This document shows positions 4,501 to 64,000 of a stretch of DNA of 64,000 nt, one piece after another. Numbering within the stretch: position 1 is the stretch's first letter; each line of letters begins with the position of its first letter. The translations under genes and the position numbers were made by a program. Location of the stretch: the NCBI GenBank assembly GCA_022710715.1, contig JAKLGJ010000002.1, forward strand, positions 309,453 to 373,452. Direction: 5' to 3'. The notes beneath the pieces were generated by a model. It was not told the origin of the DNA and did not search any database. It saw nothing but the letters and a program-made list of their open reading frames with translations. Source of the DNA: Candidatus Omnitrophota bacterium (GTDB lineage: Bacteria > Omnitrophota > Gorgyraeia > Gygaellales > Profunditerraquicolaceae).

Positions 4501-7500
4501 ATGCCGGAAGGAAACGTATTCGCTACCACCGGCTATCTGGCGACTATGTACAATACCTGGGATGTGTTTCTGGAGAAGGATTCGCCTCTTGCCATCAATG
4601 AAAGAGAGCCGATGGAGCAGCTCCTGATGAATCAGGCGCCCTGGATGCTGGCCATGCAGGTGCCGGACGGGAATTTCACCGGTTCCGTTTACCAGGATGA
4701 GGGGGATATCAAGCGATTTATGGGTATTAAATATGACTTTTCCAAGAATCAGCGGGTGGTGCGCGATTTGCGCGACGATCATTACTCTACGGCAGTGACC
4801 GGTCAATATGCCGCGGCGATGAGCAGCGCGGCAGATATCTACGCGCAGCATGGCAACAGCCAGATGGCGGTCGAGTGCACCAAAGCGTCTTTACGCGCCT
4901 GGCAATTCCTGCAGACCCATCCTAACTTCTCCCGGTTCAAGGTCGGCGGGCCGTGGGACGGCGTGGATGTGGATGAACGCGTGCTTACTGCCACCCGACT
5001 GCTGGAAATTTCCTATAATTACCCGGATATTTACGCGCAGGCTCAAGCCGAAACCGGAATTTCTACCGCAACGCCCCGGGACCTGGCCTGGTACATCACC
5101 GTGTATACGCCGCAGTTACGGCCGTGGCTGACCTTTGAAGGCGACCGCCATGACGCCATGGCGTACTGCCATATCGCGTTGTTGCCCGATGGGCTGGTGG
5201 AAAGAACCGGGTTGACTGCCACCCGCGACCTGGCGCAAAAGAAACTGGTGTATTCGTTGGGCGACGAAATTCTCAACCTGGCGGAAAGCCATCCCATGCA
5301 TCAAGGCGTAATGAATGACGAGCACGACGCCTGGGCCTGGGGTTCGACCAGGAACAAGATGGATAAGGCCCGCTGGCTGCTGGTGGTTGACGAGATCTCG
5401 GCGCGTCGGGATAAGGAAGAATACGATGGCCGGTATTTGCGCGCGGCTTATGACATCTGGAGTTCGGTGGTCGAGGCGAGGAATATCTACAGTCGGTCTT
5501 TTATGATCGGTTATTCCGACCGTTCGCCCAGGCAGCCGCACGATGTATTCCATTACAGCGGGTACGTTTCGCTGGATGCGCTTAATGGCAGGATCGTCAA
5601 CGGGCCTTCCAAGTTGCGCGATGATCCGACGATACCCGGTTTATACGAAGTGTACCAGGATATGCCCGATGACGTAAAGATATGGTATGTCAACGAGCCG
5701 ACTTTCCAGGAAAGTTACAGCGCCACCATTTTTGCCAACGCGATCATGCCGGCTCTGGCAACGCGCCAGTTGCTTCCTCCGGGCGTGCAGCTCAATGTTT
5801 CTTCACCTGCGGCCGACACCGCTGTCTTCACGGCCACGCCGGACTCGATCCCTGCCAATGAAGTGGTCACGCTTAGAGCCGCGGACGCGTATAAGGTTTT
5901 ACAATCGATAGTCGGCCCGTACAATCAGAAGTTCGAGTTTCAGGACGATATGCGGCCTGTCGACCCCGGGGGAAATCCTGTGGATCAGCAATTCCAGGTT
6001 GGTTTGGAAAATCTCGATCCTTTCCTGGGATGGGTCCCGGGAGACGTATTGCCGAGCAGACGCATCGTGGAAAGAGCGATACGCAACGCAGACGGCACCT
6101 GGACGGTGCGGGTTCAAGGCAACGATGTTTACAGTCAATTACCCGCGCCTGCGGATTCTCCGGAAGAACGCGCCGCCCGGCGCATTCACGGTAATTTTAT
6201 CGCAGCCGTGCTGTCCCCGAAAGGATACCGGCAGTCCGGAGCCGGTTCCGCCACGCAGATCTGGTATCCGCCGTCCAATCGCCCCGATCTGAAAACGATC
6301 GAGATCATCTATAAAGATGATCTCGACGGAGGCAAGGACAAAGAAATTCGCGGCCCGCCGCAGGCGCCGATGGTTTTGAGCGCCGGACTGACGGCAGTAA
6401 CCGCCGCGTTACTTTCCCCAGGCGAAATCCTGTCGCAATGGGTTGCCCGCCAGCGGGCGCGTAACCGCAAGATCGTCGTAGTCCAGGGGCTTGGTTTTGT
6501 CGGCCAGGCCATGGCTTCAGTGATCGCCACTGCCGACCGCGGACAGGAGTACGCGGTGATCGGAGTGGACCTGCCTTTCAACCAGTCCAAGATCGACTTG
6601 ATCAACCAGGGAATTTCTCCGATCAAAGCCGCAGATCCCAAAGTGGAAAGTTATTTGCGCAGGGCCGTAGTGGAAAGAGATTCGTTGATCGCAACTACAT
6701 CCGCCGAAGCCTACAAGTTCGCCGATATCATCGTGGTGGATGTGCCTTTCGAAGCGAGCAAGCCGGCGATGAGCGCAGTGCTGGATATCGTAATGCGCGA
6801 GAACGATCCTGACAAATGGCTGGAAACGTCCACTATGGATCAGGTGGTCGATCTGTACAGTAAAGAAGGCACGATGTCCCTGAAGGTGTTTACCAGCGCC
6901 ATAGAAGATGTGGCGGCTCATATGAAGGAAGACGCGCTGGTGATCATCGAGACTACCGTCCCGCCCGGCGCCACGGATCTGATCGCCATGCCCATATTCA
7001 ACCGGGTCCGCGCCCAGCGGGGATTCCGCGAACCGGTGGTGGTGGCGCATTCCTATGAGCGGGTCATGCCCGGTCCGGATTATCTGGATTCCATCGCCAA
7101 CTACCCGCGTCAGGTTTCCGGCGTGAACATAGAAAGTCTTCTTAAGGCAACAGCATTTTTCAAGACCATCATCGACACCGAAAAATATCCGCTCAACGCC
7201 CTGGCCAGCCCTACCGAGACCGAGTACGCCAAGATCATCGAAAATACCTACCGCAGTATTCTTATCGCCATGACCCATGATTTCGACCTGCTGGCCGAGC
7301 ATATGGAAGTCAATTACTGGGATGTGCGCGACGGCATCCGGGTGCGGCCGACGCACAATAACATGCTTGCGCCTACATTAGGCGTGGGTGGTTACTGTCT
7401 GCCCAAGGACGCATTGCTGGCTTTGTACGCGGCTAACGAATTCTTCAATATGAGCCCGGATAAAACCGTTTTGATCCTGCGTTCGATCGTGATCAACGAT

Positions 7501-10500
7501 CTGCGCGCTTTACGCTCGGTGCAAATGGCTTTGCAGGGACTCGCCCGGCAGCAGAAGAGGATCGAGGAGGCGCACGTTGCAATTATGGGCGTTTCCTATA
7601 AATCCGGGGTGGATGATACCCGCTATTCTCCGACGGAGACAGCGGCCCGGGCTTTCTTGAAGCTGGGGGCTCAAGTTACGGTGCATGATCCTTATGTTGA
7701 AAGATGGCAGGAGATGGAGCGGGATAGAACGCTGGCCGTGAATTTCCTTAACCATAACGATATGTATTCCGCGTCGCAGGATGCGGATGTGGTTATCTTT
7801 GCCGTGGACCACCCGGAATACAAAAACTTCAATTTTGATTCCTTTACCGACGCCAGGAATAACCGCAAAGCAGTGTTGATCGACGCTTATAACGTGATCA
7901 ACGATGACACTATCCTCAATTTGCTTAGAATGGGCCATGCGGTTTATGGTTACGGCAAAGGGCATATCAAGCGGCTTGAACGTCAGGTTCAGGAGATGCA
8001 GGAGTTGACGGCTGCTCAAAACGGAGAAAGCGCGGATAAGGATCTGGACGGCGGACAAAGCGTTGCGCTTGCGCGCGATGCGGGACCGGTAATCGCCCGG
8101 ATACTGGCGCAGGAAGGAACGGTAGACCTGGCGTGCGCGTCGGGTGAAGTATTTACGCTCGATTACGCCGCGCAGGGAACAACGTATGTCAAGCACCGGC
8201 TGGTCATCTCGCAGGGGGATAGAGTCCGGGGGTATTCTGACGTCGAAGCGGATGTCCAGGTCGGTTGCTACGCAGTTATGGGATGCGGATTCGATCCCAA
8301 GCCTTTTTATGCCGGGAACTGGAAAGAGCTGGCCTGGAAGGAGAGCCGTCATTACGCTTTGCAGTCCCATAGAACAACTTCTCTAGGCTGCTATTCAGGT
8401 ATTGGCCGGACCCTGATGAGCGCGATGCTCTCTCTCATGCGGGATGCGGGAGTGAAAACATTCTTTATCCGGGAGGTTGACCGCAAGGCCGTAGGTTTCT
8501 ACGACGCTCTGGGCTTCGCGGAGTATAAAGATACGATCTATGCCGGCAACGGCGCATCGCTGGGTTACGAGCTCGATCTGGAACGCATCGTGTATCCTTC
8601 TCCGGGCATCGATTTCGTCCCCCTGAAACAGCCGGTTGCGTATCGCATCTCTCCGGCAGCAACCGCGTCGGACGGCGGCGCGGTTACCGAAACTGAAGTG
8701 CTGGAGCAATTGACCGTTCCGCAGACCGGCTGGGAATTGGCGCAAAGCCTGAAGATAAACTCGATCCCGGACGCAGCCCGGTTGTTCAGGATTTGTGCCG
8801 GCAGCCAGGGAATAACCAGCAGGTTCGCCGGGAAGCTCTATGTGCGTATCGCGCAAAAGGAAAACCGGCAGCATACCTTGTCGCCGGCGCTGCTGCGCAG
8901 TTTCCTGGATTACACGGTTATCGCGCGCAGGCAGGATGCGCGCCTTAGGGAAGCGGCTGGCGCCTTGCGCGCTGCCCAGGCTCAAGCCAGCGCCGCTAAG
9001 CTGGGTCTGGCCAGATTTGAGATGACCGATGCCTGGAAGGATATGAATATGTGTCCGGGGATCGCTTTCCTGATCAACGGGGATACCTCCATGGGCATGA
9101 CCAATACGCATAAACGCGAAGAGCTTTTTTCCGGTGAGCTGTTCAACGGATCGGATCTCGACGTGCTCGTGCTTGTCAATGAGCGGCAGAATCCGTTCGT
9201 TGTCGATACGCTGATGCAGAATTTGGAAAACCGTAAGCAGAATCTATTCACCTTCTGGCACGAATCCCTGGATTATACCCTGTATACCCGCAGAGCCTTT
9301 CTTGCCGCAATGGAATCGTTCGATCGCCAGACTGCGGTGAGTATGAGCCAGTTTGCTAAAGCCAGGTTCCTGTGCGGTGACCAGGCGCTGGCTACGGAAG
9401 CGTTCCATGCGCTGGCCCACAGCCGCTGGCAGCGTTATTTCAAAGAGGCTTCTGACGCAGCAAAGCATTCGCGCGCTGCGCTCGTCGCCGCGATGCTGCA
9501 GATACCGGTCGAGGAGTGGAGCAAAGAAATGGTCCGGCAGTTCATGGGGCCGGGCGAGCAATACTGGGAGCTGGAAAGTGCTCACTTCTTCCCGGACGCG
9601 TTCGATGCGGACGGAGGCAGGAATATCGCCGCCGCTTTCTTCGATCTGCGCAAGACCATGCATTCGTATATGTACTTCCCGGGCAAGGAAAAAGATATGC
9701 GGCCGCTGGACCGGAACTGGATCGTCGCATCGCTCGCGGGTGTGGGGGTATTCTATCTGATCGCCGCCTGGTCCAAAGGGCCGCTGGTCATCCTGGGTTC
9801 CTGGGCTGCCTGGCATATCGCGATATTCCTCCGTTCGTATCTGGTCGACCAGTTGCATTATAACCGCAGGCACTGGCGCAAGTGGAGCATGGCGGATTTC
9901 CGCTATCCAAAATTTGCCGGAGCGTTGAGCATGTCCCTGAACAAGATGCTGATCCTGAACGTGTTTGACCTGCTGGTGCTCGGCGCGCTGCTGTTGTTTT
10001 TTCCCGGGGTTTATTTCGGGATTCCCGGTAAATATGTGGCTCTGGCAATCCGCACTGCGATCACGCTGGTATTAAGTTCGTACGTTACCTGGGCGCAGAA
10101 AGGGTTTAATTTCACGCGCAGCGCGGCGCAGGAAGAGGTGATCAAGAATATCGGGTTAAGCCTGTTCTCCACCGCAGTCGGCGCGCTGTACCTTAACGCC
10201 AGCCCCATGGCGTTCGTGGCCCTCTATTCAATCGTGTACAAAGTATTCAGCGAAGCCATCGGAGCCTGGATCGATTACCGCCGTCCCAAACCGCCGCATT
10301 TGTTCCTGCGGCCGGGTGATTATGCCGATATGCCCGCTGAAATCACCGTTCAAGGGCAGCAGCTTTATCCGATGAAGATCATTCGTCAGGTGGAGCGGAT
10401 GGTTAACCGCGATACGCAGCGGATGGAACTGCGCTATGGAATAAACGTCACCGAACCGGCTACTGCGGATAAGCTGATCGTTCCCATGTCCCGGTCCCTG

Positions 10501-13500
10501 GATTTTCTCATCGAAGAAGGCGGGCGGTTCAGCACCAATAACCCGGAGCATCTCAAGAAGCTGGTAGCGTTCGTCCGCGCCGAATTGGAGCGCCAGAAGA
10601 TCGACGCCAATGCCTGGTCCCTGGATGAGCAGCGGCTGGAGAGCGACATACTCGGGAAACTTCCGCTGGAAATGCAGGATTTTGCCGACCAGCTACCCAA
10701 GTTGAACCGGCACATTATCAAACATGGCACGTTGCGCACCCTGGTTACCTACGCCAGCCTGCTGGAAGGCCGGCCGTCGGAAGCTGTTCTCGATGAGGAA
10801 GAGACGATCTTCAGCCGTATTCTGGGCGGGCAGCCGTTCAAAGATCCGGGATTCTGGCACGCTTTACGGCCGGAACATTTCCTCCGCCAACCCATAGAAT
10901 TCGTCATTGCGCAGAAGGATTATTTTGCGGAAGCGGGGAAAGAACGATTGCTCGATCAGATGGAGAGGAAAGTCGAACGCAACCGACTCACCGGGCAGAT
11001 CGTGATCATTCCGTATAAAGGCGGCAATCCGTTTGAGTTGCTGCTGGAGATCATGGAGAATTTTTACTGGCTGCGTTTCAATTCCGCAGTGATCAATCAT
11101 TTGAGGCAGAACGTTGCCGGGGAGTCGTTCGGCAAAGAATTGATCGACCGCTACATTATCAGAAGCTGCTGGCAGCATGCGGATATCTGGAGCTGCAAAA
11201 AAGTCCAGGGAGGCCTGATCGCCGAAAAAGTGCTGCAGTCGGTATCGCGGATGCAATTCAGGCTCTCGATGGATAAACGCGTAATACAATCCCTGTATAC
11301 CCAGCATGACCGGTCCTGGCGGCAATTCTTCTATCCGGTTGCTCACCCCAAACAGACCCAGCTGGTGTTTAAAGACGAGTTCGAGCGGTTGATGGAAGAT
11401 CCTAACCGGCAGGTGCAGGTCAAGCATGTGCGGTTGCTGGAGATCTGGCAGGTCCAGCAGGAAGTCCGCTTGTTCATGAAACAATTGAATAACTACTCGT
11501 TGATTCCGGTTCTGGACGAACGCATCGGGCTTCCTTTGAAAAGCATGGTGAGTTATCTTCTGGCGGAGAGATCGCTGCAGGATATTCTGGAGAAAATGGG
11601 GATAGTGGTTTCTTCAGATGACATCGATGCGCTGATCAAATCCATTATCGTAAAAAAGGCGGCAACCGGCAAGCTGCCGGATGATTTCTTCAAAGCGCTG
11701 GAAGATGTGGATTTGCGAAAGACGATACTGGAACTTCACGACGGCGGCAGCCGCCCGGCAAAGATCAACAGGGAATTGAGGAAGAAAGAGGCAGTCGCAT
11801 CTACCGTGGCAGGTGGCGCTGCCTCTTCCTCAATACCTGCGGTGCATTACGAAAAGACCGGGCGGGTGATCAAAGTATTCGCGCCCAGCGGGTCGCTGCT
11901 TGCCGTGCTGCGCGCTTTTGCCCTGACCGCGGGGCCGGAGGTGAACCTGCCGTTCACCCGGGGTATTTCCATGCGGGTGGCGCCGGTAGGATTACATCAC
12001 CGCGCTTCGGTACTGGAGAAGCTGATGCTGGTGTACAAAGATCACTATTGCCCGGGTGATAAATCCTTCGGCATACGCGAAAACGATATTGTTGCGGTCT
12101 TGTGGGAGAACGAATCGTTCGGCAGAGGACAAGCCTTGAATATGCGGGCGGTTCCGGTCTGGGAATTTGTGCGCACCGGTAAGGGCACAGAGGTCTGGTC
12201 CGAAGCGCTGCCCATGCTGTCCTCAAGAAAAGCGGATATGCGCACAATCATGGTGTTGCTGCTGTTGATACGCAAAGAGCAGGCCAAACTGTTCGATTCC
12301 TACCGGTTCAACGAGCAATTCCTGCAGAAGATCAAAGATGGCACGCGTTGGTCGGACTGGGGAGCGTTGAAGGTACGTAATGCGCAGGAGACAGCGTTAT
12401 TGTTGCATAAGCCGTTGTGGGAGGAATTCCACCGGTCATACTGGAGCATGAGCCGTGAATTGTCCGTCGGGCAGTGGCATGCCGATTCCCTGTTGCCCGA
12501 CGTGTTGTCCAGGCAGGCAGTGTTCGCGGATCTGGGGATGGAAGAGAAGCTGAAACAGGCGCTGGTTGAGCCGCGGCAAAGAGACTTGCTCGAAGCTGTT
12601 CCCGGCAAGAATGCGATCGGCCGCCGCGTGCGCCGGCATATCCGCAGCGCCGGTTTCGACCAGGTCCGCCTCGACGCGTTCAATCTGGACGGCGGCAAAC
12701 TGGTGATCGGCACAATGGACCAGATCAAACAGCAATTCGATCTGTCCGCAAACAAGGCGGTGGTTTACGACGCCGCCGGCGTGCTCTTCGATTGCGATAA
12801 GGAAAAAGTGGTCGATCATTTCCTGGCCATCATTGAGCAACGGATGAAAAAATACGTCGCCCGGCAGGCAGTGGACGAACTGTTCTTCAGCGGAGAAGAA
12901 GCGGGCCGTTTGAGATTAACCCTGCCCATGGAAGCATTTGTGCTTTGCCTCAATGAGGCTCTGCGGGCGAAGGGCTGGCCGGTATCTTTTACCCGGGAAG
13001 AAGTCGAGTATGGATTGACTCTGGGGCATACTCCGATTCCGCAGACCCAGGAGTTCAGCCGCCAGGCGCAGGAGCGGGGCATGGAGCAGTTTGTCCTTTC
13101 CAATCATTTCAAAAGCAAAGACGACCGTCTGCGCAAACAGTTCTACGTCATGGTCAAGCTGCATTATCCGCATATCCCCTCCGATCATATTATTGTTTCC
13201 GAAGAAATCGGTCTGGCCAAGCCGAGCGAAGCGATCTTTCGTCTATTGTTGAACCGTTTCGGGCTGTCTGCCGGCAGTACCCTGTTCATCGACGATCAAC
13301 AGCGCAACGCATTTGCGGCGTACCTGCTGGGCATGAACAGCTGCTGGTTCACTAAACAAACAGACAGTAAGCAGGTGGGCAAACATGGCCTGATCATGAA
13401 GCGCAAGGGCATGGATCTGTATGCTCCCCGGGAGCATCCGGAAGGGGAGGACGTCCTGGTGGATACCGTGCGTATCGCTGACGGTAAGACCGTGCCATTG

Positions 13501-16500
13501 CGAGCCGAATATCCGGCATCCGGGCAGATCGATGAAGCCAGCCAGATCTGGGATATCGAAACCAAACGCCTGCTCGATGTATTTATGCTCGATCTGTCTG
13601 CCCGCAAGCTCGCTCGTTACGCCCAGGGCAGGGAGATCCTTATGCGCAAGGTTTTTCTTGATAAAAATGGGCAGCTTATTCTGGGCGGCCGGCCGTGGGC
13701 TACTTTCTCCGGCGTTCCCGAGGCCGAAGTTGAAGTATACATGAAGAACGGGATCATCCGTAACGTGCTTTTTGTCGGATCCGGCACGCGGGTTGATTTT
13801 ATCCTGCTGCGGGACGCTGCCAGCAACAGGATCGTGGATTCCTACATCAACAAGCTTTTCGCGAAAAGAGCCCGCCGGTACAGACATTTTTACATCGAAT
13901 ATATTGAAACTGATTCCAAGGGCGGATTTTGCGCTTGCGGCCGGGAATACCAGTGGGTGTTCCCGGAACATCCCCGTTCCCGGCTGTCGGTAGAGGTGAA
14001 GCTGGGATTCAGGTATATTCCGGTTCCTGTTGCCGCACGTATTATCGGAGATAACAAACAGATCATTGCCACCCGCGAGCTCAATCTGCTCTGGGATATG
14101 CGGGACAGGTTGATCGGGTCGTTCTTCAAACGACTGGACCCGGCTGCGGTCGCGGCGCGGGAATTCATTATCGAGATGAAAAACGATATTCCGGAATGGG
14201 AACGGTTCAAGGTGAGCGCGTCCAGTTTCAAAGGCCGCAGATTCAAGGATTTGAAAGGGCAGCAATCGCGCGTGTTTGTCAAGGATCTGATCCCGCTGTT
14301 GATCCGGTTCGAGAAGGGAGTGACGTTCGCCTATGATCCGGAGAAGAATTTCCTGTCGCGGGCAAAAAATCAGGATCAGGCCGACCGTTTCCTCTATGCG
14401 CTGGCCTGGGAAGGTTTAACCCCGAACGAGCGGTTGATCTTAGCCCTTGCCGCATATCAAAAGAAAAAAGAATTCAACCTGAAAAGCCTCAAAGAGACCA
14501 ATCTCGGGTACGCATTGTTGAAGCAGGAAGGCAAGAATTCGCTCACCGAGCTCAAACGCATACTGGAAAGATATGAATGGGGTCTGTTGCTGCGGATTAA
14601 CAGTCATTATGTCCTCAAGGGGGGATTCAGGGATTTTATCCGAGAAAAGGAGTCAGTTGATCCGGCTGCCGAGGAGTTTTATTCCGCGCGCGATCTGCAG
14701 AAAGCCCTGCAGGAAGCAGTCAAGCAATCCGACCTTATTCAGCCTTCCCGCGAAGCAATCCGGGAAAAATTCCCCAATCTGGTCCGGGATTACGACGTGC
14801 TCAAGGCGGTCGGCAAGATCTCCTCCGGCTGGAATCAGTTCGTTATTCCCAGGAGCAAACGCGGCCAGGCCCGGGAAGAAGCGGGTAACGGTCAGGCGCA
14901 GGACGGCGGTAAGTCATTACTCGCAACCTGGGATACCATGCTTGATTCCGGGCTGGTCGGCCGGATCTTCGCTTTGCGTCTGCCTTTGCCCGGCCTCGAC
15001 AGGGCGCTGGCGGTGCGCGCTTTATTGCCGGCCGGGGCGGCAAAAGGACTGCAGGACATATTCTTCGAGGATGATCTGATCATCCTGGTTTACAAGATAC
15101 GCGGCCGGCTGCAGTTGTTCCGTATCGCCCCCTGCGATTTTACCGATTATCTGACCGATACCGCGAAAGTTCGCGTTTTTTACAAAGACGATTATAAAGT
15201 TGAAGTCATCGCGGATAATCAGGAGATCGAAGATATTCTTGCCGACCTGCGCTTATACCGGGCGTTCCCGGGATTGTATAATCTGGTATATGGTCTCAAC
15301 TCCGAAGATGTTCACGAGCAGTTGCGCGCCCTGCAAGCCATCAAGGGGCTCATGCGTAACAGCGCGGCTGCTCCGGAAGCGCAGCGGTTGCTTACCGCAT
15401 TGCTGGGCCATGAGAACCGTTATCTGCAGCTGCGGGCGCAGGAGATCCTTAACGCGGTGCACAGCGGACGTCCTGCTGCGTTCCCTGATTTCGAGCGCAT
15501 ACAGTTTGCGGCTCCCGGAGAAGCGATTTCGTTGCCGGAGACAGTCTTGAACGTGGGATTCAATCCTAACGCGCAAACAGTCGCTTTGCGCGGTTTCAAG
15601 GCCCGCCTGGCGATCAAAGACGCAGCATCGGAAAGGTTGCGCTATCGCAATTTAACCGCGACAGCGTATACCGAGAACAGCGTTACGCTCAAGGTCAAGC
15701 CTCACGCGCGCCATCTAAAAGTGTCTGCCGGGATGGCGCATATCGCGTTACAGATTAAACAGCCGGGCAGCCGGTCCTGGGAATTTGTCGATCATCCGAC
15801 AGCCAATCAGCTGGTCATTGTTCAGCCTGATCTGCGCGGCGCGATGATCTATCAGCTCTGGCCGGCGTACCTGGGGGTCTATGATGAGGACGGGCAGGTT
15901 CGCTATGACCATACCGGCAGGGCTATTCCCGGCACATTCAAGGACGCGCAAGACCTGCTGCCGGCGCTTAACGCGCAGGGGTACCGCTACATATATCTCA
16001 TGGGTATTTACCAGTTGGATAAACCCGAGAACATCATCGGACAGGTCGGGCCGGATGCTTCGTTATTCTCTCCGCTGTCATTCGCGGTCAGCCGGGAGTT
16101 GGGCGGCGAAGACGGCTTAAAAGCCCTGATCGATAAAGCCAGGGATGAATTCGGTATCGGGATTATCGTGGACTTGATCCCCCATGTGAACCAGAATTTC
16201 AACGATCTGCCGGAATGGGCCATAGTCAAAGCCAGAGGGTCCGCCGGCAGGGTTATTCGCAGGCTGGCCACCGACGGTTCGATCAACTTCGAGAATGGAT
16301 TACCGGTGGAATGGCATGATTCGGTGATGCTCAATTACCGGGATAACCGGGTGATTCAAGCGCAAGAACAATTACTGCGGCGCCTGGCGGCAATGGGAGT
16401 GCAGGGCGTGCGTATCGACGTAGCCCACAACTTCGGTTCCCTGCTGCCGGTCGACCCTTCTTTAAAGAGCAAGCAAAAGCTGTTCGGGCAGGTCACTTCC

Positions 16501-49500: not shown

Positions 49501-52500
49501 AATCTCATCTATACCAACTATCTGGCTTCTTTCGAGTCCAAACAGCGCTATCGCCTCAAAGATCTCTTTAAAGGAATGGAGATGATCCCCGACTGGCAGG
49601 GCGAGATCTATAAAGCGAATATGGCGGTTTTTGCGGCTAAACTGGACGAGTTATTGACCGAAGGGATCATCGGCCTGGAATTCGACCAGAAAAAACCGCG
49701 GCGGATGCTGGTGGATGCGGTTAAACTCACGTTGCAGCGTTTCGGACAGGCCAGGCCCCAGAAGAAAAAAGGTAAAGAAGAGGCTAAGCCGTTCGCGAGG
49801 ATCAAGGGTATGCTGGGCGAAATATCCGGCCTGCATAAATTCACCTTTATCTTCGAGGATACCATAGAGTTTCTGCATTCGCTGGCCAATCTGGAAGAAT
49901 ATCAGCGCGTGTTCACCTCGGTACGCGGCTGCAAGGAAGTGGACGCGACCAGCCGCCGGACCATACTCGAATTCAAATATATGACGCATATGCGCGATCT
50001 CTATGAGCAGATCGCCGGGTACGGAAAAGATATCTCGGTATTCAGCATGCTTATTTCGGCGCACAAGCGCCGGGATGGGTTCTCGCGCGCCGATGATAAA
50101 GCGCTGGAAGGCGTGCACAATATCGTCTACTTCGCCGAAAACGACTGCCAGATGGTCGCGGCGGTCAACCGTTTTGTCCGGCGTTACTCAAAACGCCACG
50201 GAGATGAAGTCGATGCCCAGATGCATAAAACGCTCCTGGAGCGCACGATGAGCAACGGGGAAGGTTTTACCGTGCGCATGACCATAGATGAATTCCGGGC
50301 CTTGCTGCTTGACGATCGCGTCATGCAGTTATTTTTACGCGAGATTGAAGCCGGGGATTGGCAGTGGAAACGAAACGATGTTATCGCCGATATCAAGTTC
50401 ATATTCAGCCAGTTCAAGAAATACGTCCCGCACGATGATTTCGATATTTATTTGAGCGTGAGCAACCCCGCCGTGCCGGATGAGCAGCGGATACCTGCGG
50501 TCGCGGATACGGAACAGCCCGACGGCGGGTACAAAAAAGCGGTTGATAGCTTCTTCGAAAATAAGCTTCCTTTTGAGGATAACCGGTTCCGTCCTTTGAC
50601 CGCGGTCAAATTTATCCTGGGCAGCATTGCCACCGCGATTGGCATGGCGCTGGGCGGCATAAGCGCGTATATACTGTTGCAGGCGGCTGCCTGGATAGGA
50701 ATGGTCATCGGCAGGAACATCCTGGTGGATATGAAAGCCTGCCGGGAAGCCGAGAATAAAACAAGCTGCATGCGCGACCAGCTCTCGGCACTGGCTTCTT
50801 TCCGCAGGAAAAAACTCGCCAATGACATGTTTGTCAGCGGTTTTTCGAGTATTCCCATCATCGCAGTCAAGATGTTCGGTTCCAACTATCTGGCCGCCGA
50901 ATTTTTCCCCGGGCATGTCGCCGCGCAGATACTCCTGGATATCGCTATAGTCAGTCTGGTCGGAGGATTGATCAATTACTGGCAGCGCCTGGCGAGGGAT
51001 TATTCCGCGGCGGTATCACTGAAAGATTTCCGCCGAAGCTTGCTAATGAGCGCCGGCGCATACGGGATATTCATTATTCTGTTTGCCATCGGCATGACTC
51101 AAACACTGGTCTTCTCCGCGGTTATATTCGCCCTCACGCGCAAGTTCATCGGCGAAGCCTATGCCGCGTACGCGGAGTATCCCGAAGTCAAAGAAAATTA
51201 TGCGCGTAATTTCAACGGCAATAACGGCGGGAAAGAACAAGACGGCGGATTGCTGCAGTCCCGGATGGAGCGTCGGGCGTGGGGAGGGAAGATCCTGCCC
51301 TACGGTCAAGCGGCTGGTTTATTTAAAACTCAAGAATTTCACCGGTTGCGGCGCTATATTGCTCGCGCAGTTCGCAGTGGAGTAAGGTTCATTATTATCG
51401 GGGAGTCCCACGATATGGAGGAAATCAACCCGGTGGTTACCGGGATCCTGAACGCCGTCCGGGAGCAGGGCAAGCGGCCGGCTTTGTATCTGGAAGCCCT
51501 GACCAGCGGAAGGTATGATGAAAAGGGCGAGGTTCTGAAAGATCCCCGCCGGGTCTACGGCCACAATCCCTCCAAGTACGACCGGCTTATAGAGAGCGTG
51601 ACAAAGAAAGGGATCGACGTTTTCGGTATAGACGCCGCCTGGACCAGTACTTTTGATGCGGAACGGGTCCCTTACTGGGCAGAGTACATACTGGCTAATT
51701 CAGGCGAGGTGGCGGTTATCCTGGTCGGAGCGGGGCATGTCAATTATTGGCAGCAGTCTTTCTCCAAAAACCCGTTCTTCTTCCTGCCGGTTATGCTCGT
51801 GCAGCGGGGAGTGTCTGCTTCGGAGATACTCACGCTCACGTACGCCAAAGTGTATAATGCCGATGCCGCGGGAAATCTGGGGGCGGCATATCATCGCATT
51901 GCCCAGACACGGCAGCTCAACAGCTTCAAGGAGTCCCGCGAACATCCGGTTCTGCGTTATTTCCAGGAGCACGGCATTGCGGACGTCCTGGTGCTGGGGG
52001 TGAATATTTCCCATCACGCGCAGCCGGCGGAAAGCGACGGCGGAATAATTTTCAGCCATGACATCATTGAGAAATGGCAGTATACGGAGCAATCCGGCGG
52101 CGTAGAGATGCAAGGGGACTTTTCGGCGCTACCGGGTAACCGCGAAGTTTTCCTCGGCACGGTGAAGATGAAAATTACCGGCGACGCCGTGATCGCGGAC
52201 ATGTGCAGCGATATTCAGACACATATAGCCGGACAATACCTGGGTGAAGAGATGTTCACCCGGGCATATGTGCACGCCTATGGCGTAAGCCACCGGTGGG
52301 GGTTGTATCCGTCGAGCGCGCACGCGGGCTTTATCCTGGATATGCCGGAGATCGGAGAGCCTGATGTGGCGCTCAAGGTTTTGTTGAGGATGGACCGGTT
52401 CTTCAACCGTCTGCAAACCCATTATCTGGAAAAAGACGAGATTTCCTATGACGTGTTCCGGCATCACCCTTCCTGGGAGTATTATTTCTGGGAAGCGCCG

Positions 52501-55500
52501 CTGGAGGGTTTTGTAAAAGGGAGCTTGAGGAAATGGCAGAGGCTGTTCTACCGCGACCGGGTAATGACCTATTCCGCTCACCGGGGCCGGAATCCGGGGC
52601 AGCAATGGCGGCAAGTGAAAAAAGAAATCGATTGGCCGCAGGCTTCCGCGGTGTTATCGCGGCAGTTCGACAGCGCTTTGCTGCAATCTGGCTTATGGGA
52701 CTGGCAATTGCAGAAATCGGGCATGCCAGATGGCGGCATTCTCGATCAGCCGGTTTCTTTTCAAGAGTATCTCACCCCGGCATTAATCGTAACGCCTAAA
52801 TCCATTCCGGAACCGCGGCAGCGTTGCAGCGAAATTAACGCCGCCGCCAAAGCATTCTTTGCTGCAACCGGCAGGGGCGTTGCAGGAAAGTACGCGCGCC
52901 GGGAAAAGGTGAATATCGGCTGGTGCGAGGACGGAGCGACCAGGCTTGTTTTCGCCGAAGACGTTTCCGGCAGGGTGGTCGGCGCCGTGGTGATGATGCT
53001 CGGAGAGATGTACACTCTGTCGGTTGATCCGGCGTGGCGCGACAACGGGCTGGGTGAAGTCCTGTTGCGCGAGACCCTTATTCGCAATAAAGCGGCCGGA
53101 TACGACTATCTTAAGCTTGAAAGCACTTTTCTTGCGCTCAATTTCTATGCGAAATGCAATCAACGGATCCGGAGCATAACGGGCATACCCATTGAAGCCG
53201 GGTTGGCCGCAGACGGAAACATTGCGTATCGTTATGACCTGCAATCCGTCCCTGCCTCCGCATTGCTCGCGTTGCGGAATTATTCCCCGCGTATATCGCG
53301 CAGAGACAAGCTCGCTTACGCGCGCGCGTATCTGGACAGCCGGTCATGGCATGACGGAGGCATGGCGAGAAAAGAGGTGCGGCTTACTCTGGAGAGCGAT
53401 GAAGACTTTGAGAATATTCCCCATATCAATGCGTATGTGGCGACCATTAATATCGTTCGGGGATTGAAGACCACGGATGAACCGTTTATCGCCGGCAGGC
53501 TCTTTTTCGGGGAGTCCATCGCGGATTTCCTGCGCAGGATAAACAGGTTAGAAGGCGGCAACGCCTTGATTATCGGCGCAGGCGCAGGCATTATCGTAAA
53601 AGATATCAGAGACGCTTTCCCGCGCGTACGACTGTCTTTCATCAACAAAGAGCTTATCGCGCTGCCGATCGGTACGCTCTGGCACAAGCTGAATCTCAAG
53701 GGCGCTGCCTACGAGCAGCGGCTGCAGGAAGCGCGCGAGTTCGTACGATACTTTCACCGCACTGTCATCTATCACGATGTTGAGCACGGATTGCCGTTCT
53801 CTGACCGGACGTTCGATTGCGTCATCGTGCCCGATGCGGTTGACGAGTATATTGTGCATAAAGCAGAGCTTATCCGGGATGTTAAACGGGTATTGAAACC
53901 CGCCGGCGCGGCGTTCTTCAGCGATCTGGCCAAGTTCAACGTTTTCGGTTTTTATGCCGACGGGTTCTTTGAGCAGTTGAACAGAGCCGGACCCGTAGAA
54001 TACCGTTATCTTGCTTCCAGATCCTCTCCAGATCGCGGAACGCTCAAGATCAACAATATCCTGGCGCACAAGCCATTTCCCGGACTGTTCCTTATTCGAT
54101 CCGAAGAAATAAAACACCCTGAATTGCCATCCTCTTACGCGTCGTATTACCGATGGAATTCCAACGCCGAAAACGATAAATACTCTGACGGTGGTAAGAA
54201 TCCGCTGGTTGCTATTCTCATTAAGCTTCTGTCATTTAACCGCGGCAATCAGGAGCTCTCCGCTTGGGTGCGCGGGGCCGCGGCGATAATCCTGGGCAAG
54301 ATCGGAGATCCCCGGGGCATTGAGGCGCTGCTCGTGGTCTTCAGAGACGATTCGCGGCAGGAGCATGAACGGCTTATCGCTGCCCGGGGCTTGAATGAAT
54401 ATTTGAAGCGCGTATTCGGGGAAGCAGACGGCGGTAAGACAGTATTGTTGCGCAAAGGCATTATCGATACCAAAGCAGATCCGGAAGTCTTTACTCCGCT
54501 CGAGGGTTGGGAAGAAAAGAATTACGATCGCTTGGCCGAATACGTCAAGGCGATGTGGAGCCTCCCGGAATTGCGCCTGTACGATCATCGAGGGCAAAGG
54601 ATCTTTTATAATTATATTGACCGGTTGCTCTATGCGGGACACGAGATGTATAAGCCCGAACGGGAAGATCTCAAGCCCGGCGTATTCAAGGAAGTCGAGC
54701 TCAACGATAACGCCATAGCCATATTCGGCGATTTTGTCACAGCTCATCTGCTCACCCAGTGGCTGGAAGAAAGAGACGACGGTCCTCAACCGGACAGAGA
54801 GGAATTCATCACCTGGGTTTGCCGCAGGTTCAATCTGCAGGCGATCGGCGACCAGGCGGATATCCCGCAGGGATACTTCCTGCTGACGCGACAGCCCGTG
54901 GACTGGCCAGAGCCGTCGGACAAAGAAGTCCAAACCGCTGTTGACCCGCTGGATCAGGCCAGGCAGCTTTTGCTCGAATTCTCTTATCCGCTGCCGGAGA
55001 TTTCATTGTGGGGCAATCTGCCGAAATGGCGGGATTTTGTTTTCCCGGATGAGGAAGGACGGCTCTGGAAAGTGCGTTCCTGGAATACCCTGCCCAGGTT
55101 CTGGGTGCGGGGAGAAGTGCCGCAGTTCTTGCGTTTTGCCATCGAGGAATCCGGCCGGGAGAGAGTGCTTTTCGACCAGGAACAGGCAGCAGCCTATGAA
55201 CAAATACGCGAGGCCAGCCTGTCGAGGAACGGCTTGATCCTGGCGGAGATCAAAAATACCGGATTCGAGGCGTTGCGCCTGGATCCCCTGGAGACCATCG
55301 TCAGCATCCCGCGCAACCGCTTGCTTGCCGGCGCATGGGTGGTGGCCGGAGATGACCGGGAAGGCGCTCGCGCCTTCTATAAAGACGGGGATCTGCTCAT
55401 CTATGCCCGCGCCGGCAGCGAGCAGTTTATCACGCGGGCGGAGGATCTCAACAGGGTTCCGGAGATCTATGCGCAGCAGAAAGAGAACGAGCGCGCGTCT

Positions 55501-58500
55501 TTTGCGGCGCAAGGAGGCGGGTTTTTCCGTTATTTCCTGATGCAGCTGCCTGAAGAGCCGCGCAGGGCTCTGGCGATTAATGAAGAAGTGTTCGAGCTGC
55601 CCGGCGCGCAGGAAGCGTTGTATGCTCTGCTGGAGTTGAAAAATATCGCGTCGGTGTATCTCTTCGGTTCTGCCGCCCGGCACTGGAAAGAACATTTCGG
55701 AGACCATCGCCTGAAGATCGCGGATTCTCTGGATGATATCCGGCAGGAAAACGCTCAAGAGCCCGCGACGATTGCCATGCCGGCAGAGCGTGCAGAGCTG
55801 TTGTCTGCATTTGCCGACGCCCTGGCGCAGGTATATGGTGATGGCGAACGCCAGCAGGCGGTTCTGGACTATTTCAAAAACGCGCTGGCCTGCGCCGGCC
55901 GTTCGGCAGGCCGGTCTGACGGCGGAAGGCTTTATTTCTTCGACAACCGCATCGCGATAGAACCCGCAGCCGCCGATTTCCTGGAACGCACCCGGGGCCA
56001 CTACCGGATTTTCACTGCCTGCAGCGGCGCTGCCTGCGGGGAGACGGGGATCGGTAAGATTCGCCGTTATGGCTCGCGTAGCCCCAAGCGCAGCGATCAG
56101 CTTATCGAAATCGGCGGCGGCAAGATCTACGTGAGCGCGCATCAGCTCGATTTCGTGCTGCGCTACTTCGGGTCCATCGAGGTCTATTATGACCCGGATC
56201 AGGATGATCTGTCCATCCGTCCAGACGGAGGGCAAACAACCACCATCCGTTTCGATAAAAAGCTGGCCTACGTCGTCGTCCCGGATTACGAAGCATTGAG
56301 CGAAACGGTAACCGGGATAGTCCGCAATCTTATCCGCGAGAAACCCGATGCTGTACTCCTGGTGCCGGGATGCAATACGCCTATGGGATTCTATCGGAAA
56401 CTGGCGGTTTGTGTGCGTACGGGAGAAGTGGATATTTCGAATGTGCGGTTCGTGACCCTTGACGCGCCTATCGGCCTGGAGCTGATCGATTCCCGAAACT
56501 TCCGGATGTACATGTATAATTACTTTTACCGATTCATCTTCGGGGATATTCCGCAGGGGGCGGACAAAGAACAATTCCTGAAAAGTTTCTACAAGGAGCA
56601 TCCCAATCTCGTCGTAGCCTACGTCCCGCCCGACGCTTCCGATGCAGAGTCGGGGCGGATTGCCGGAGAATTCGGCGATACGCTTGCGCGTATGGGATAT
56701 GCCGATATGGCTTTCCTTGGATTGGGGCTGGCCAGGGAAAGAGCCGACGGTAGATTGATCGGAGGGCATATCGCTTTTAACGAGCCCGGCACTCCGCTTG
56801 AATCTCAAGCCAGGATCGTCGATCTGACCGAGCACAGCATAAGCACTAAATTCGTCAGTTGCAACGTATCTTTGTGGGACAAAGAAGATATGAATCGCGG
56901 CCCGCCGCAGCGGGCGATCACCGTGGGTGTTCAGGACATTCTGCGTTCCAGGATCATTCTCATCGCTGCTTCAGGCAAGAATAAAGCCCGGGAGGTGCAA
57001 TACCTCCTGGAAGGAGAGATAACCGACGATTTTCCCGCCACGTATCTTCATACCGTAAAAGATAAAACACTGTTAATTGTGGATAAAGAAGCTGCCGCTT
57101 TGCTTGATGATCGTGCCGAGCCGGTTGACGGAGGCAAGGATGAAGTTCTGGGCTGGGGGTGCTGCCTCGAGCCGGGCAGCCTTACCGCGCTGGTGAGGGA
57201 AGAGTATCCGCATAGTTTTATCAGCGGTTTATGCGCGCAGGGCGCGTGTATTTCCTGGAAAAGTCTGCGGGGTGCGACCAAAGAAATTCTTGAAAAGAAC
57301 CAGGGGCTCTATGACCGGATACGCACGGGCAGCATCAAACCGGTTATCGTCCATAATGAGGCTACGGGAAGAGACGGCGTTCCGATCATCTCGATAGATA
57401 AGAATACCGGGCATTTCATCATTGCCGCGCGGCATCGGGGAAGATTGTACGTATCCCTGGCGCTGCTGAAGCTTTTGATCGAAAAGGACCGTAGAGACGA
57501 AATAGAGCTGTTGTTGAATTGGGCCGACATGCCGATGGCGCAGCAGGATGCGCAGGGGGAGAAATCCTGGGAACGCTTCTGCGCCCTGGCGCTGCGCGAA
57601 TGGGCCATGGAGACCGTAAAGAAATGGTATATTCCTACCGAAGAACGGTTATTCGCGGTCAAATGCATACAATTGCTCCAGTCGGCGGATTACCTTACCC
57701 GCAGCACGGAAATGTCCGGCCGGGTCGATATGCACATTCATTCGGTCTATTCGGACGGATTCTTCACTCCTGCCCATCTGGTGGTGGAATACTGGCTGAA
57801 AGGCTGGTCAGTGATGTCCATCACCGACCACGACACGTTTGAAAGTCAGCCCGAAGCTATCGCGGCAGCCGAGATCCTGGGAGGGATACAATATGTTCCC
57901 GGCATCGAAATGACCATCTATACTCCCGAACATCTGGTGGAGAGCGTACATCTGCTCGGCTACTGGAGAAAGAATAACCGGGCATTCCTGCAATGGCTGG
58001 AGCGGGCCAGAGAACACGGATGGCTGGAGGGCATCGAGACCAATCGCCGTGAATCGAAAAGAATCACCGCCGCCATACTTGCTGATTTCAACCGGCGGCA
58101 GCCGAAATTGGCGGTTACCGATGACGACATTCGCAGGGTATTCCCCCGCGGAGAATTGTTCAATAAGAACGATATAGCCACGGTGCTTTATGTAACGCAC
58201 GGCCCGCCGGGAAGAGGAGCGGTCAAGGAAAAGGATATCAACGGTTTCAAGATCGGCTGTCTGACCAACCTCCCGGCATACTGCGACAAGACAAAATGCG
58301 CTTTCACTTTCGATGAAGCCATGGCTTTTTGTCTCGACCACGGATTCCTTCCCGTTTTCGCTCATCCTTTAAGGAGAGAAGGGTGGAATATGATCAAGGT
58401 TAAGAATGCGCTGGCCCAATACAGCCGCATCGACCGTAAGGGTAAACTGTGGCCGGGTTTCCGCGCGGTGGAATGCGTGCACAGCGGAGAGAGCGAAGCG

Positions 58501-61500
58501 AACATGCGCAAGCTTTTTGCCACGGTCGACCACTTCAACCGCAACTATTACTGGGCTTGTCCGCTGGCCGTGACCGTGGGCACGGATACGCACCGGGATT
58601 GGGACAAATGCTTCGGGATACATTGTCCTTCCTATACGCGCGAGGGGTTGTTCGCGATGAGGAAAGGCCTGCTTGCCGGTATATTATTGCCGATGCAAAA
58701 AAGGGTAAATTTCTTCGCCGACGTCCTGTTCTACTGGATACGGCTTACGGTTTTCGAGAAGCTGATGAGTCCCGTCAGCCTTGTCTGGAGTCCGGATAAT
58801 GCCCTGCTGGGCACGGAAAATGAATATCAGCGGATGGTTACGGTAGCCCCTCTGGTGATCAAGGAATTGGGCAGACGCATGCGCAGCGACCGGCGCAACG
58901 ATTTTCTGTACGGTTTTCTGGCCCAGGCGCTGATCACTCACAACGACATTCCGGAAACGTACAAAGCCGGAATCAAGGCGTTTGTCTCGGACATGTTCGA
59001 CCTGTCCCGCATCCAGGCGCAGGAGCGTTTCGTCACCGCCTGTCTTCTGGACAGGCATCTGTCGTCACCTTCCGGCTTCACTGAAACTCTTCTGCTCCAG
59101 GCGAAAGCGGCATATTTGGGGGCATGGGGAATTACGGCTGAAGAGCTGCCCGGCGTCCTGGAAAGCGCGGTAGAGAGCCGGTACCTGGAAAGGGACCGGC
59201 TGTTGCGGCCGGGATACCTGCGCAACGACCGTCAGGCAGAAGAGACGGTGTATTTGCTGGATAAGAGCTTTTGTGTGCTTTCGAACGAGAATACGCTTCT
59301 GGAGAGAGTCCGTGATGTCAATCCGGAAACGCGCATTGCGGTGCTCAAAACGTTGATCGATCAATTCTCGCTGCCCGGAGAGCGGACCCTGGCATTGCTG
59401 GCCGAGTTGCTGGTTAAGGATCCCGATGCCTATGTCCGTCGTCTCGCCGCCCAGACCCTGGGCAAGATCGGCGACCGCAGGCATCTGGCCGCGTTGAATC
59501 AGGCGGCGGTCATCGACACGGATAAGACCGTGCGCAGCGATGCGGCAACCGCGGCGGCAGCCGTCCAGAACGGCCAGAAAGGCCTGGACAAGATAAACGG
59601 CAGAATCAAGAGGGCCAGGAACAGCTCATCGAGCGCGCCGGACGGCGGCAGATTGTCCGATAGCGAAGCCCGGCAAACGATCGAACGACTTATAAAAGAA
59701 TTCCAGGAATTCGTCAACATCGTCAATGCCGATCTTGCTAAAATCGCCCCGGCGCTTAAAAATCGGACTCTTACGCTGCCGGAGGAAGCAGCATTCACTA
59801 TCGATGAAACAACCACGATGCAGGGATTAACCGAAGATTTCTGGCGGGTATACGCAGATAGCTATAACCGGCAGCTCATCGATTGGCACAGGGCGTTGAG
59901 CGAAAGCTCGGTACCGATAACCATCAACAGCGCGTACGAAGAATTCCTTAAAAATGAGTTTTTGCCGGACAACGCGGGGATAGCGGTTACGGCGCTGGAC
60001 GTCGGGACCGGGCCGGGAACCGTTGCTGCGTTGTTACTCAAAGCAGGCGTCCGCAATGTTATAGGGGTAGATATTTCGCCGGAAATGCTCCAAACGGCAG
60101 CCGCAAACACCGGATTTGCCGGGTCAAGAACCGATTTTATCGCTGCCAATGCGGTAAACCTGCCTTTGATGGATCATGCGGTTGATGCGGTATATTCGGC
60201 CTGGACGTTAAAATATCTACCGGATGTTTTACGTGTTCAGGCGCTTGAAGAGTTTTACCGTGTCCTGAAGGTTGGCGGCAGCATGCATCTCTTGAGCTTG
60301 CAGGAAATGGTGAATGAAACGTCCGCGCTCGGCACTCGGTGGAAGCCGACAACCGAGTGGCCGATGGACAAATATCGATCTATCCTTGAAAGGATCGGCT
60401 TCTCCGGGATCGCAATGGAAGATGTTGCCAATTGCCGCGTCGTGCTTGCGGCAAAAACAGCCGTGAGCGCCGACGGCGGAGCGCGCAGGTATTATAAAGA
60501 GTTTTTCGGGAAATATCCGCAGTTGAAGATGCTCAAAGCGATTGTCGCGGATGCAGACGATTCGATAATGCTCAAAGGTAAGCCGCTGGATGCGCCGATG
60601 AGCGCAGTCATCCATCAACTGCGCGTGGACAAGGGAATGCAATTCGCCCTGGTCACCGGCGATAGTTACGATCATATGCTCGACCGGTACGTCGCCGCGC
60701 TTTCCGCCCCGGCCAAAGCGGATCAGCTTTTGATCGTGGAGAACGGCGGCAGGATATTCAGATTCGATACTGCGGGAGCGCTCGATCCGGCGCCCGCGCA
60801 GGCATTCCCGGTTTTTGACCGGGAAGAGGACGTGCTGGCTCTTGTCGGCGCCATAGAATCGGCGGTAAGGAGCGTGTTCGAGGCTAACGGCGTAGATCCC
60901 GATCAGACCAATGTCTGGCCTATCCGGCGCAGGCCAGCCGACCGTCCCGACGAACTGAACATATCGATGCGGGATGCGTTGCCTCTACGGGAGCAGGTAG
61001 CCGGCGAGGTGCGCGCGCGCCTGGCGCTGGACCCGATCAGGTTCAAAGGGGTCAAAGTCTTCGTGTCTTCCGCTGCCGTGGAAGTGTCCCGCCAGGATAA
61101 GGGCGATGCGATGAATCATATTGTAGAGACGCTGGGTATCAAGCCTTCAGCCATACTTCTGTTGGTGGACAGCGAAATAGATGATCCGATGATGCTCGCT
61201 TTTAAGGATAGCGTGAAGCTCTGGCTCGGGCCGGAACCGTATGCCGGAAAAGCCGAAAATGTGATCAACGCGCGCATTCCCGGCCCCGCCGGCGCGCAGG
61301 AATTCCTGGACCTGCTGCTCGACGAGGAATTCCTCGCGCAGTCGTCTCTTCTGTGGGAAGGCAGGATTCCGTGGGTGGGCGATTTTGCGGTTGCGCCGGT
61401 CGGCTGCCCGTGCTGCGGCAGGCGCGACTATGATGTTTTGAGCAGGATCCGGGTCAACGGTCAGGAGCTGGAGATAGTCAAGTGCCGGGATGACGGATGC

Positions 61501-64000: not shown

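Follow-up and report, generated by a model that had tools for sequence, protein, structure and literature searches.

Asp-Gly-Gly tripeptides at the boundaries of enzyme units in a giant Omnitrophota gene: a candidate junction code

Omnitrophota encode giant proteins of up to ~147,000 aa, and whether these are single molecules or are cut into smaller ones is a stated open question. The closest described systems are the giant Omnitrophota Archaeovorins reported by West-Roberts et al. (bioRxiv 10.1101/2023.11.21.568195), for which peptidase domains of the C39 (double-glycine) or S8 family are reported at the N-terminus and cleavage into smaller products has been proposed, the cleavage sites being explicitly called unknown. 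Nielsen & Lui (bioRxiv 10.64898/2026.06.07.730766) described a multi-enzyme metabolic cluster class and an architecture cluster bearing C39; processing, linkers and motifs are not discussed there. Here we analyzed a 64,000-nt stretch of a Candidatus Omnitrophota genome (contig JAKLGJ010000002.1, positions 309,453 to 373,452 of the forward strand), referred to below as the window, in which one open reading frame (ORF) carries the tripeptide Asp-Gly-Gly (DGG) again and again at the ends of enzyme units. All nucleotide and amino acid positions are those of the window unless stated otherwise.

By its predicted domain content, the window matches the Archaeovorin or multi-enzyme metabolic cluster kind. 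Like them, it has an ORF far over 10,000 aa and a repertoire of HEAT repeats, GT5 starch-synthase-like units, GT1/GT4, methyltransferases, glycoside hydrolases, PPDK, radical SAM, HIT and scattered transmembrane helices, the same repertoire that was reported for the Archaeovorins (bioRxiv 10.1101/2023.11.21.568195). A junction motif, linker or cleavage site, in contrast, is described in neither paper, and full-text literature searches returned no paper that ties DGG or any junction motif to Omnitrophota giants. The initial annotation had suggested that a cut enzyme polyprotein would be a new kind of bacterial gene organization; both giant multi-enzyme ORFs and the idea of their cleavage were already in the literature (bioRxiv 10.1101/2023.11.21.568195, 10.64898/2026.06.07.730766). 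What appears to be new is the junction code, its precision and its lineage dialects, set against a giant gene class and a cleavage hypothesis that were known.

Frame +1 is free of stop codons over the whole window (1..63999, plus strand; 63,999 nt, 21,333 codons) and is open at both ends, while the remaining five frames contain 208 to 993 stops each. The window is thus an interior portion of a single giant gene, both termini of which lie beyond it. Pfam scans were made on 1,400-aa tiles, with the tile cuts placed without regard to DGG. The resulting map contains a chitin-synthase-like GT2 with a membrane domain, GH9, two UDP-glucose dehydrogenases, HAD, GH13, three GT5/GT1 starch-synthase-like units, amylo-1,6-glucosidase, GFO/IDH/MocA, GT4, radical SAM, a PPDK-type PEP-utilising enzyme, a GDSL hydrolase, several class I methyltransferases, GGACT, a uridine-kinase-CYTH unit, cytidylyltransferase, GNAT, PHP and HEAT repeats. 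Overall, the ORF consists of carbohydrate, nucleotide-sugar and methyl-transfer enzymes together with HEAT repeats and a few transmembrane clusters, and none of its many distinct Pfams is dominant.

A regular-expression count on the translation gave 35 DGG tripeptides in frame +1, compared with 6.4 expected from composition (Gly 7.1%, Asp 6.0%) and 6.2 under a first-order Markov model. Residue shuffling (2000 replicates) gave a mean of 6.5 (sd 2.5) and a maximum of 16, and no replicate reached 35. DGG is the strongest tripeptide outlier under the independent and the first-order Markov models alike (z about 11.3–11.5), in agreement with the initial annotation, which had judged it to exceed compositional expectation from a list of 34 sites; that list missed the site at 42376 and placed three starts 1–2 nt off (6327, 8046 and 8670 in place of 6325, 8047 and 8671). 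The component dipeptides are not enriched in the ORF (DG, 94 observed vs. 91 expected; GG, 100 vs. 107), and the near-variants EGG (2), NGG (3), DGS (4), DGA (3), DAG (3) and GGG are at or below expectation.

The residue directly after DGG is Lys at nine of the 35 sites (p=9e-6) and Ala, likewise favoured, at eight, followed by Gln, Arg and Ile at three each and Ser at two. Gly, which had been listed among the usual following residues with Ala, Lys, Gln, Arg and Ser, never occurs there. Before DGG there is a modest preference for Pro, Leu or Gln; in a per-position enrichment test, Pro next to the Asp and Lys after Gly-Gly were the only residues to stand out. Beyond these positions, the flanks are close to background in composition and are neither of low complexity nor extended, for which reason a long disordered linker was rejected. 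No relationship is seen among the flanking sequences of the 35 sites, and few of the segments are paralogous. At 23/35 sites the codon before the Asp (for example 6322–6324 and 27124–27126) begins with C and specifies Leu, Pro, Gln, His or Arg, compared with 23% of all codons (p=1e-7); this shared first base may reflect the Pro/Leu/Gln subsite preference.

Comparison with the domain map disclosed that DGG is kept out of domains. No DGG (0/35) lies inside a Pfam envelope, although envelopes make up 29% of the protein (P=6e-6), compared with 29 of the remaining 65 GG dipeptides (45%; Fisher P=3e-7). In seven units the Pfam profile begins at its position 1–2, just 6–32 aa past a DGG. An exhaustive HMMER search of the five-junction stretch aa 13400–14560 against 1.84 billion representative proteins yielded matches that each align with exactly one DGG-to-DGG segment. 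For three modules of this stretch, the ends of standalone-sized homologs were projected onto the window sequence. For the methyltransferase unit (11 standalone proteins) the median projected ends are +1 aa past one DGG and −1 aa ahead of the following one; for the kinase-CYTH (PRK-CYTH) unit (57 proteins) at −5 and +8 aa relative to the DGGs; and for the GDSL unit (4 proteins) ~26 aa from DGG on either side. In all three modules, homology to standalone proteins ends at the flanking DGGs. Since standalone homology stops there and, for the methyltransferase and kinase-CYTH units, the termini project within a few residues of DGG, each DGG-to-DGG segment (median 403 aa) looks like one complete standalone-type enzyme, with DGG as essentially the whole connector.

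Paralogs within the ORF agree with these boundaries. Two starch-synthase-like paralogs align end to end over exactly one DGG-to-DGG unit, as in a tandem duplication. Three paralogous HIT/GalT-like units (33304–37470, aa 11102–12485) share 47–66% identity, an H-x-H-x-H-I-Y motif and CxxC; DGG is present only in the one that ends a unit, the corresponding column reading YGR in unit 2 and DEE in unit 3. Two of the three are joined without punctuation to further domains, radical SAM and PPDK-type. The association of DGG with module boundaries, therefore, was read correctly in the initial annotation; its extension to nearly every junction was not, given several junctions without DGG, and its estimate of about 45 free enzymes gives way to the 36 segments that 35 sites define in the window.

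Long HMMER matches supplied four distant DGG-type relatives (P0001, P0002, P0003 and P0019), which are giant-protein fragments or complete large proteins. By their labels, P0003 and P0019, like two further relatives, L001 and L002, are Candidatus Omnitrophota (33–59% identity), and P0001 is from a metagenome-assembled genome (MAG) of a Deltaproteobacteria bacterium. P0002, complete at 7,886 aa, has five DGGs, four in its C-terminal enzyme region and one after its N-terminal domain; the three other long relatives have 9, 5 and 11 against 0.67, 0.64 and 1.6 expected. Across all four, 0/30 DGGs lie inside Pfam envelopes. All four keep DGG at junctions homologous to those of the window, where the flanks can no longer be aligned and the adjoining modules share just 33–55% identity, so that conservation at the same junctions in related giants, a check proposed with the initial annotation, was borne out. 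The same module boundaries in non-giant multidomain relatives have no DGG. Where the methyltransferase unit ends C-terminally, the junction sequence is NNCDGGIS in P0003 and P0153 and NNGNGGIP in P0152 (cluster members, at least 90% identity), P0152 being a natural DGG-to-NGG variant.

A different punctuation was found in L001 (contig JBAZTA010000002.1), a 6,997-aa open frame from an Omnitrophota MAG that was retrieved with an alignment of the HIT-like units and is collinear with window aa 9540–13436. L001 has zero DGG. It has 16 Ser-Ser-Ala/Pro tripeptides (SS[A/P]) against 2.8 expected (shuffle maximum 10), usually followed by Ile, Leu, Val or Met, which tightly bracket its HAD, NusG and YkuD units and are located at the junctions homologous to window DGG 10255 and DGG 13440. 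In L005, a metagenomic fragment, SSP ends the HIT unit whose window counterpart ends at DGG 11443. Because L001 and L005 have SS[A/P] where the window has DGG, the junction punctuation is, on this comparison of homologous junctions, of at least two lineage-specific dialects. Module order also differs: the window has GT4 and then an HD-like unit with no DGG between them (aa 10267–11084), and L001 has the HD-like unit and then GT4 with SSA before each (L001 aa 2488–3312). This swap indicates module shuffling with breakpoints at junction marks.

Further features of L001 were recorded. The HIT-radical SAM-PPDK arrangement of the window is found again there; NUDIX, not seen in the Pfam tiles of the window, is present. 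One SSA (L001 aa 4163, nt ~12488) lies inside the PPDK_N domain in the stretch VRSSA..ED, for which the L005 homolog has VRSSATMED; it probably matches the junction code by chance, and it illustrates that the motif is tolerated when buried in a domain. A NusG N-terminal (NGN) domain, a transcription factor module, occurs at L001 aa 6129–6216 as a 104-aa SS[A/P]-bracketed unit, and an L,D-transpeptidase (YkuD) unit is also encoded. A word-indexed protein search with the five-junction segment and with the P0002 N-terminus gave no match, the giants apparently not being in that index, and neither single-protein scans of genome and metagenome collections nor a search of viral contigs gave any.

To separate peptide from nucleotide conservation, we compared codons at the motif with those elsewhere in the ORF. 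At DGG, Asp is GAC in 80% and Gly is GGC in 69% of cases, and the most frequent spelling, GACGGCGG, accounts for 20/35 sites. Non-motif D-G pairs show 47 GAC to 12 GAT and non-motif G-G pairs are 68% GGC, which matches the usage at DGG; the nucleotide pattern GAYGGNGG is almost confined to frame 1. In L001, the motif serines use both AGY and TCN codons. As the amino acids never vary and the codons that spell them follow the codon-pair usage of the background, selection is, to judge from these sequences, acting on the DGG peptide and purifying, in line with the initial annotation, which had placed conservation at the peptide level. A nucleotide signal or recombination scar was rejected on the same codon usage and on the mixed serine codons of L001. 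Internal Shine-Dalgarno or re-initiation sites (GGAGG-like) were rejected as well: GGAGG is found at only 7/35 sites with no consistent start codon downstream, and the SS[A/P] dialect is unable to be a Shine-Dalgarno sequence.

We tentatively propose, as the foremost of several readings, that DGG marks, in this lineage, where a polyprotein is recognized and cut. Complete standalone-type enzymes would be fused head to tail with Asp-Gly-Gly as the near-sole connector, and the tripeptide would be maintained by peptide-level selection as a recognition signal for a co-evolving partner. We infer that this partner is, most economically, a site-specific endopeptidase that would cut the primary product into separate enzymes, and it is because the reader is taken to be such an enzyme that the giant ORF would be a polyprotein. 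The candidate bond would be the one after Gly-Gly for a C39 or papain-like enzyme and the one after Asp for a caspase-like enzyme; the candidate enzyme itself would be the C39-type peptidase domain that has been described at the N-termini of these giants. Of the two roles suggested initially, linker or polyprotein-processing site, a peptide mark of module boundaries is what the data support; processing is plausible and fits the published C39/S8 proposal. A broader proposal, possible but somewhat more doubtful, is that Omnitrophota giant ORFs are true cellular polyproteins, in which dozens of metabolic enzymes would be made as a single chain and freed by a dedicated endopeptidase, and whose junction code (DGG, SS[A/P]) co-evolves with the type of peptidase (C39-like vs. 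S8-like) at the N-terminus of the same gene.

Several observations weigh against cleavage. No peptidase domain was detected in the 21,333-aa window by the Pfam tiles or by relaxed-threshold Pfam searches of unannotated segments, the N-terminus of the gene lying outside the window, and no peptidase family was found in the complete 7,886-aa DGG-type relative P0002. The flanks of DGG show no hydrophobic periodicity, unlike canonical double-glycine leaders, a candidate rejected on this ground. DGG is absent at several Pfam-defined junctions, namely GT2 to GH9, GT5c to GDE to GH13, UDP-glucose dehydrogenase to GFO, GT4 to HD-like to HIT, HIT to radical SAM to HIT to PPDK, and PRK to CYTH; such transitions may belong to native multidomain enzymes, or they may be fusions that carry no mark. 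Finally, the relatives compared are a handful of sequences, and the link between motif dialect and peptidase type is a prediction.

The N-terminal domain of P0002 (~227 aa; L004 1555–2238, P0002 aa 1–230) deserves description. It contains LIIISGHGN and GVIVLDSCSTG, in which His-Gly or Cys follows a hydrophobic strand, and a DGG lies directly downstream at aa 228. This arrangement is that of the clan CD caspase/legumain-like peptidases and makes the domain a lead only: Pfam gave DUF4347 at E=0.015 and nothing else, there was no PDB sequence match and there were no homologs, and AlphaFold run on the single sequence reached a pLDDT of just 41, too low for the model to be used.

A serious rival to the cleaved polyprotein, and one that we rate as doubtful rather than unlikely, is that the product is never cut. 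The ORF would then encode one working polypeptide, enzymes strung like beads and held by the transmembrane clusters, and DGG would be a selected minimal hinge or helix-breaking stop, or would be read by a chaperone, a modifying enzyme or some other partner that is not a protease. In its favour, Asp, Gly-Gly, Ser-Ser and Pro are typical of linkers and helix caps, no protease was found in the window or P0002, the transmembrane clusters along the chain suit a scaffold, and published treatments model such giants as single polypeptides. A hinge, however, needs no exact tripeptide, yet EGG, NGG, DGS, DGA and GGG are unenriched. Generic flexible linkers vary in length and sequence and are Pro/Thr/Ser/Gly-rich and of low complexity, whereas the window has an invariant DGG between near-background flanks that are not extended, and DGG survives their full divergence among relatives. 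The wholesale switch to SS[A/P] in another lineage is what a co-evolving reader would lead one to expect; because that lineage swaps DGG for a different tripeptide, the generic flexible hinge offered initially as the alternative is disfavoured, and it is the uncut but specific connector that persists as the rival.

Oligomeric state bears on the same question. UDP-glucose dehydrogenase and many other enzymes fused here are normally homo-oligomers, and a three-residue tether to neighbours would presumably hinder their assembly in an uncut connector. A crude hydropathy scan located four transmembrane-like helix clusters (aa 1–850, 3240–3334, 16866–17032 and 20957–21004), which break up a chain of enzymes using the cytoplasmic cofactors NAD, SAM, ATP and UDP-sugars, and some DGG-delimited units, such as aa 16844–17083, are mainly hydrophobic helices. 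Given such clusters among enzymes with cytoplasmic cofactors, it would be difficult to assign a membrane topology to an uncut chain.

We consider it improbable that DGG and SS[A/P] are evolutionary scars left by cassette insertion or shuffling, for instance by short-core recombination, with no function in the protein. This idea draws on the breakpoints that lie at the motifs where module order in the window departs from that of L001, on a duplication unit that runs exactly from DGG to DGG, and on the predominance of one nucleotide spelling. Against this, the motif codons carry no nucleotide information beyond background codon-pair usage, and serines drawn from the AGY and TCN families leave L001 without a nucleotide core. 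A functionless remnant should also decay to near-variants, which are not in excess, and the motif persists among relatives whose adjoining modules have diverged to 33–55% identity. A compositional or repeat artefact of Gly/Asp richness or repeated sequence is refuted by an expectation of about six, a shuffle maximum of 16, unrelated flanks and few paralogous segments.

Compared with known processed systems, the window shares a trait of processed polyproteins, a brief motif that is found again and again at the ends of complete proteins. As in viral polyproteins (coronavirus PLpro, alphavirus nsP2, picornavirus 3C), many proteins share one frame, a short motif stands at the protein ends, subsite preferences are weak (Leu/Pro/Gln before and Lys/Ala after DGG in the window) and the motif varies by lineage. 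The coronavirus PLpro cuts at LXGG|A/K and picornavirus 3C at Q|G; the likeness of DGG to LXGG|A/K is a lead only. In contrast to the viral cases, the window gene is cellular and bacterial and encodes metabolic enzymes, its cleavage is a proposal, and no protease was identified in the available sequence. Canonical C39 substrates have a single N-terminal leader of 15–30 aa with conserved hydrophobic positions (LSxxELxxIxGG), the hydrophobic residues standing at −4, −7, −12 and −15 and an acidic residue at −8 or −9. The window shares with them Gly-Gly at the candidate scissile position (35/35 sites) and differs in having 35 internal sites, no leader periodicity and a conserved Asp at P3. Megasynthases and other fusions (PKS/NRPS, AROM, eukaryotic FAS) also carry many catalytic units per polypeptide; they are, however, uncut assembly lines with longer, variable linkers or docking domains, whereas the window joins unrelated whole enzymes by an invariant tripeptide.

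For the question of whether these giants are single molecules, DGG provides testable coordinates and is the first concrete candidate for their long-suspected cutting sites. The coordinates could be used for semi-specific peptide searches in proteomes, as mutagenesis targets, and as a guide for dividing ORFs ahead of structure prediction and annotation. That one lineage has DGG and another SS[A/P] leads us to predict that the motif varies together with the peptidase domain, which is checkable on hundreds of complete giants, 46 of them from West-Roberts et al. and 916 from Nielsen & Lui. If cleavage is true, the system would be without precedent in bacteria as a large cellular polyprotein of metabolic enzymes, and proteolytic punctuation, so far viral, would be in massive use by free-living or episymbiotic bacteria. 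If cleavage is refuted, DGG would still define a connector grammar for megaproteins that is both new and under tight constraint.

The 35 sites, all on the plus strand and named here by the amino acid position of the Asp, are distributed as follows. DGG 2109 (6325..6333) separates a GH9-containing segment from UDP-glucose dehydrogenase-like unit a, and DGG 2683 (8047..8055) lies 49 aa past the end of that dehydrogenase, before a 208-aa unit with a weak GNAT match. This GNAT-like unit ends at DGG 2891 (8671..8679), where a 313-aa unannotated unit begins; DGG 3204 (9610..9618) leads from the latter into a 710-aa unit that opens with two hydrophobic helices (3240–3334). DGG 3914 (11740..11748) has unannotated sequence before it and a 316-aa unannotated unit after it. 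DGG 4230 (12688..12696) is 19 aa upstream of the start of the HAD hydrolase (profile position 2), and the HAD-containing unit is divided from GH13-like unit a by DGG 4968 (14902..14910). DGG 5804 (17410..17418) stands between GH13-like unit a and starch-synthase-like unit a (GT5+GT1), DGG 6475 (19423..19431) separates the two paralogous GT5+GT1 units (39% identity in the end-to-end alignment), and DGG 7143 (21427..21435) separates GT5+GT1 unit b from a 1900-aa GT5c-GDE-GH13b unit.

Further downstream, DGG 9043 (27127..27135) is 6 aa upstream of UDP-glucose dehydrogenase b (profile position 2). DGG 10255 (30763..30771), replaced by SSA at the homologous L001 junction, follows a GFO/IDH/MocA-containing unit and precedes GT4; DGG 11443 (34327..34335) marks the junction of HIT-like units 1 and 2, with SSP at the corresponding HIT-unit end in L005; and DGG 13440 (40318..40326), with SSP at its L001 counterpart, lies between a PPDK-type unit and the GDSL hydrolase, which starts 11 aa on. 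The next junctions are those with DGG-keeping relatives: DGG 13699 (41095..41103) between GDSL and a methyltransferase, kept in P0002 and P0003; DGG 13985 (41953..41961) between the methyltransferase and GGACT, 11 aa on, kept in P0003 and P0153 and NGG in P0152; DGG 14126 (42376..42384) between GGACT and the uridine-kinase-CYTH unit, kept in P0001 and P0019; and DGG 14516 (43546..43554) at the end of the PRK-CYTH unit, kept in P0001.

DGG 15143 (45427..45435) separates a cytidylyltransferase-like unit from a HEAT-repeat unit, which DGG 15559 (46675..46683) divides from a 511-aa unannotated unit. Unannotated units of 202 aa and 569 aa follow DGG 16070 (48208..48216) and DGG 16272 (48814..48822), each with unannotated sequence before it as well, and DGG 16841 (50521..50529) leads from unannotated sequence to a 240-aa unit with about three hydrophobic helices. 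This membrane unit is followed, after DGG 17081 (51241..51249), by a 265-aa unit with a weak ChaN-like match. DGG 17346 (52036..52044) is a unit boundary that is unannotated on either side, and DGG 17577 (52729..52737) lies between an unannotated unit and a GNAT unit, itself separated from methyltransferase 2 by DGG 17785 (53353..53361). An 80-aa HEAT-like piece is set between methyltransferase 2 and a 497-aa unannotated unit by DGG 18063 (54187..54195) and DGG 18143 (54427..54435). A 102-aa unit is bounded by DGG 18640 (55918..55926), preceded by unannotated sequence, and by DGG 18742 (56224..56232), which is followed by a glucosamine-6-P isomerase/6PGL-like unit. DGG 19043 (57127..57135) stands 20 aa past the end of the isomerase-like domain, before a PHP-HEAT unit; DGG 19881 (59641..59649) separates HEAT b from methyltransferase 3; and DGG 20158 (60472..60480) separates methyltransferase 3 from a 561-aa unit ending in methyltransferase 4. 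The last site, DGG 20719 (62155..62163), follows methyltransferase 4 and precedes an unannotated unit with two hydrophobic helices. Methyltransferase 4 is a paralog of the unit at aa 13702–13987, and both end at a DGG.

Long ORFs of 340–610 aa were also observed on the opposite strand, at 2053–3678(−), 13243–14265(−), 46528–47808(−) and 55003–56835(−), and one antisense frame has just 208 stops across 64 kb. These antisense ORFs are most likely shadows of the coding strand and not genes.

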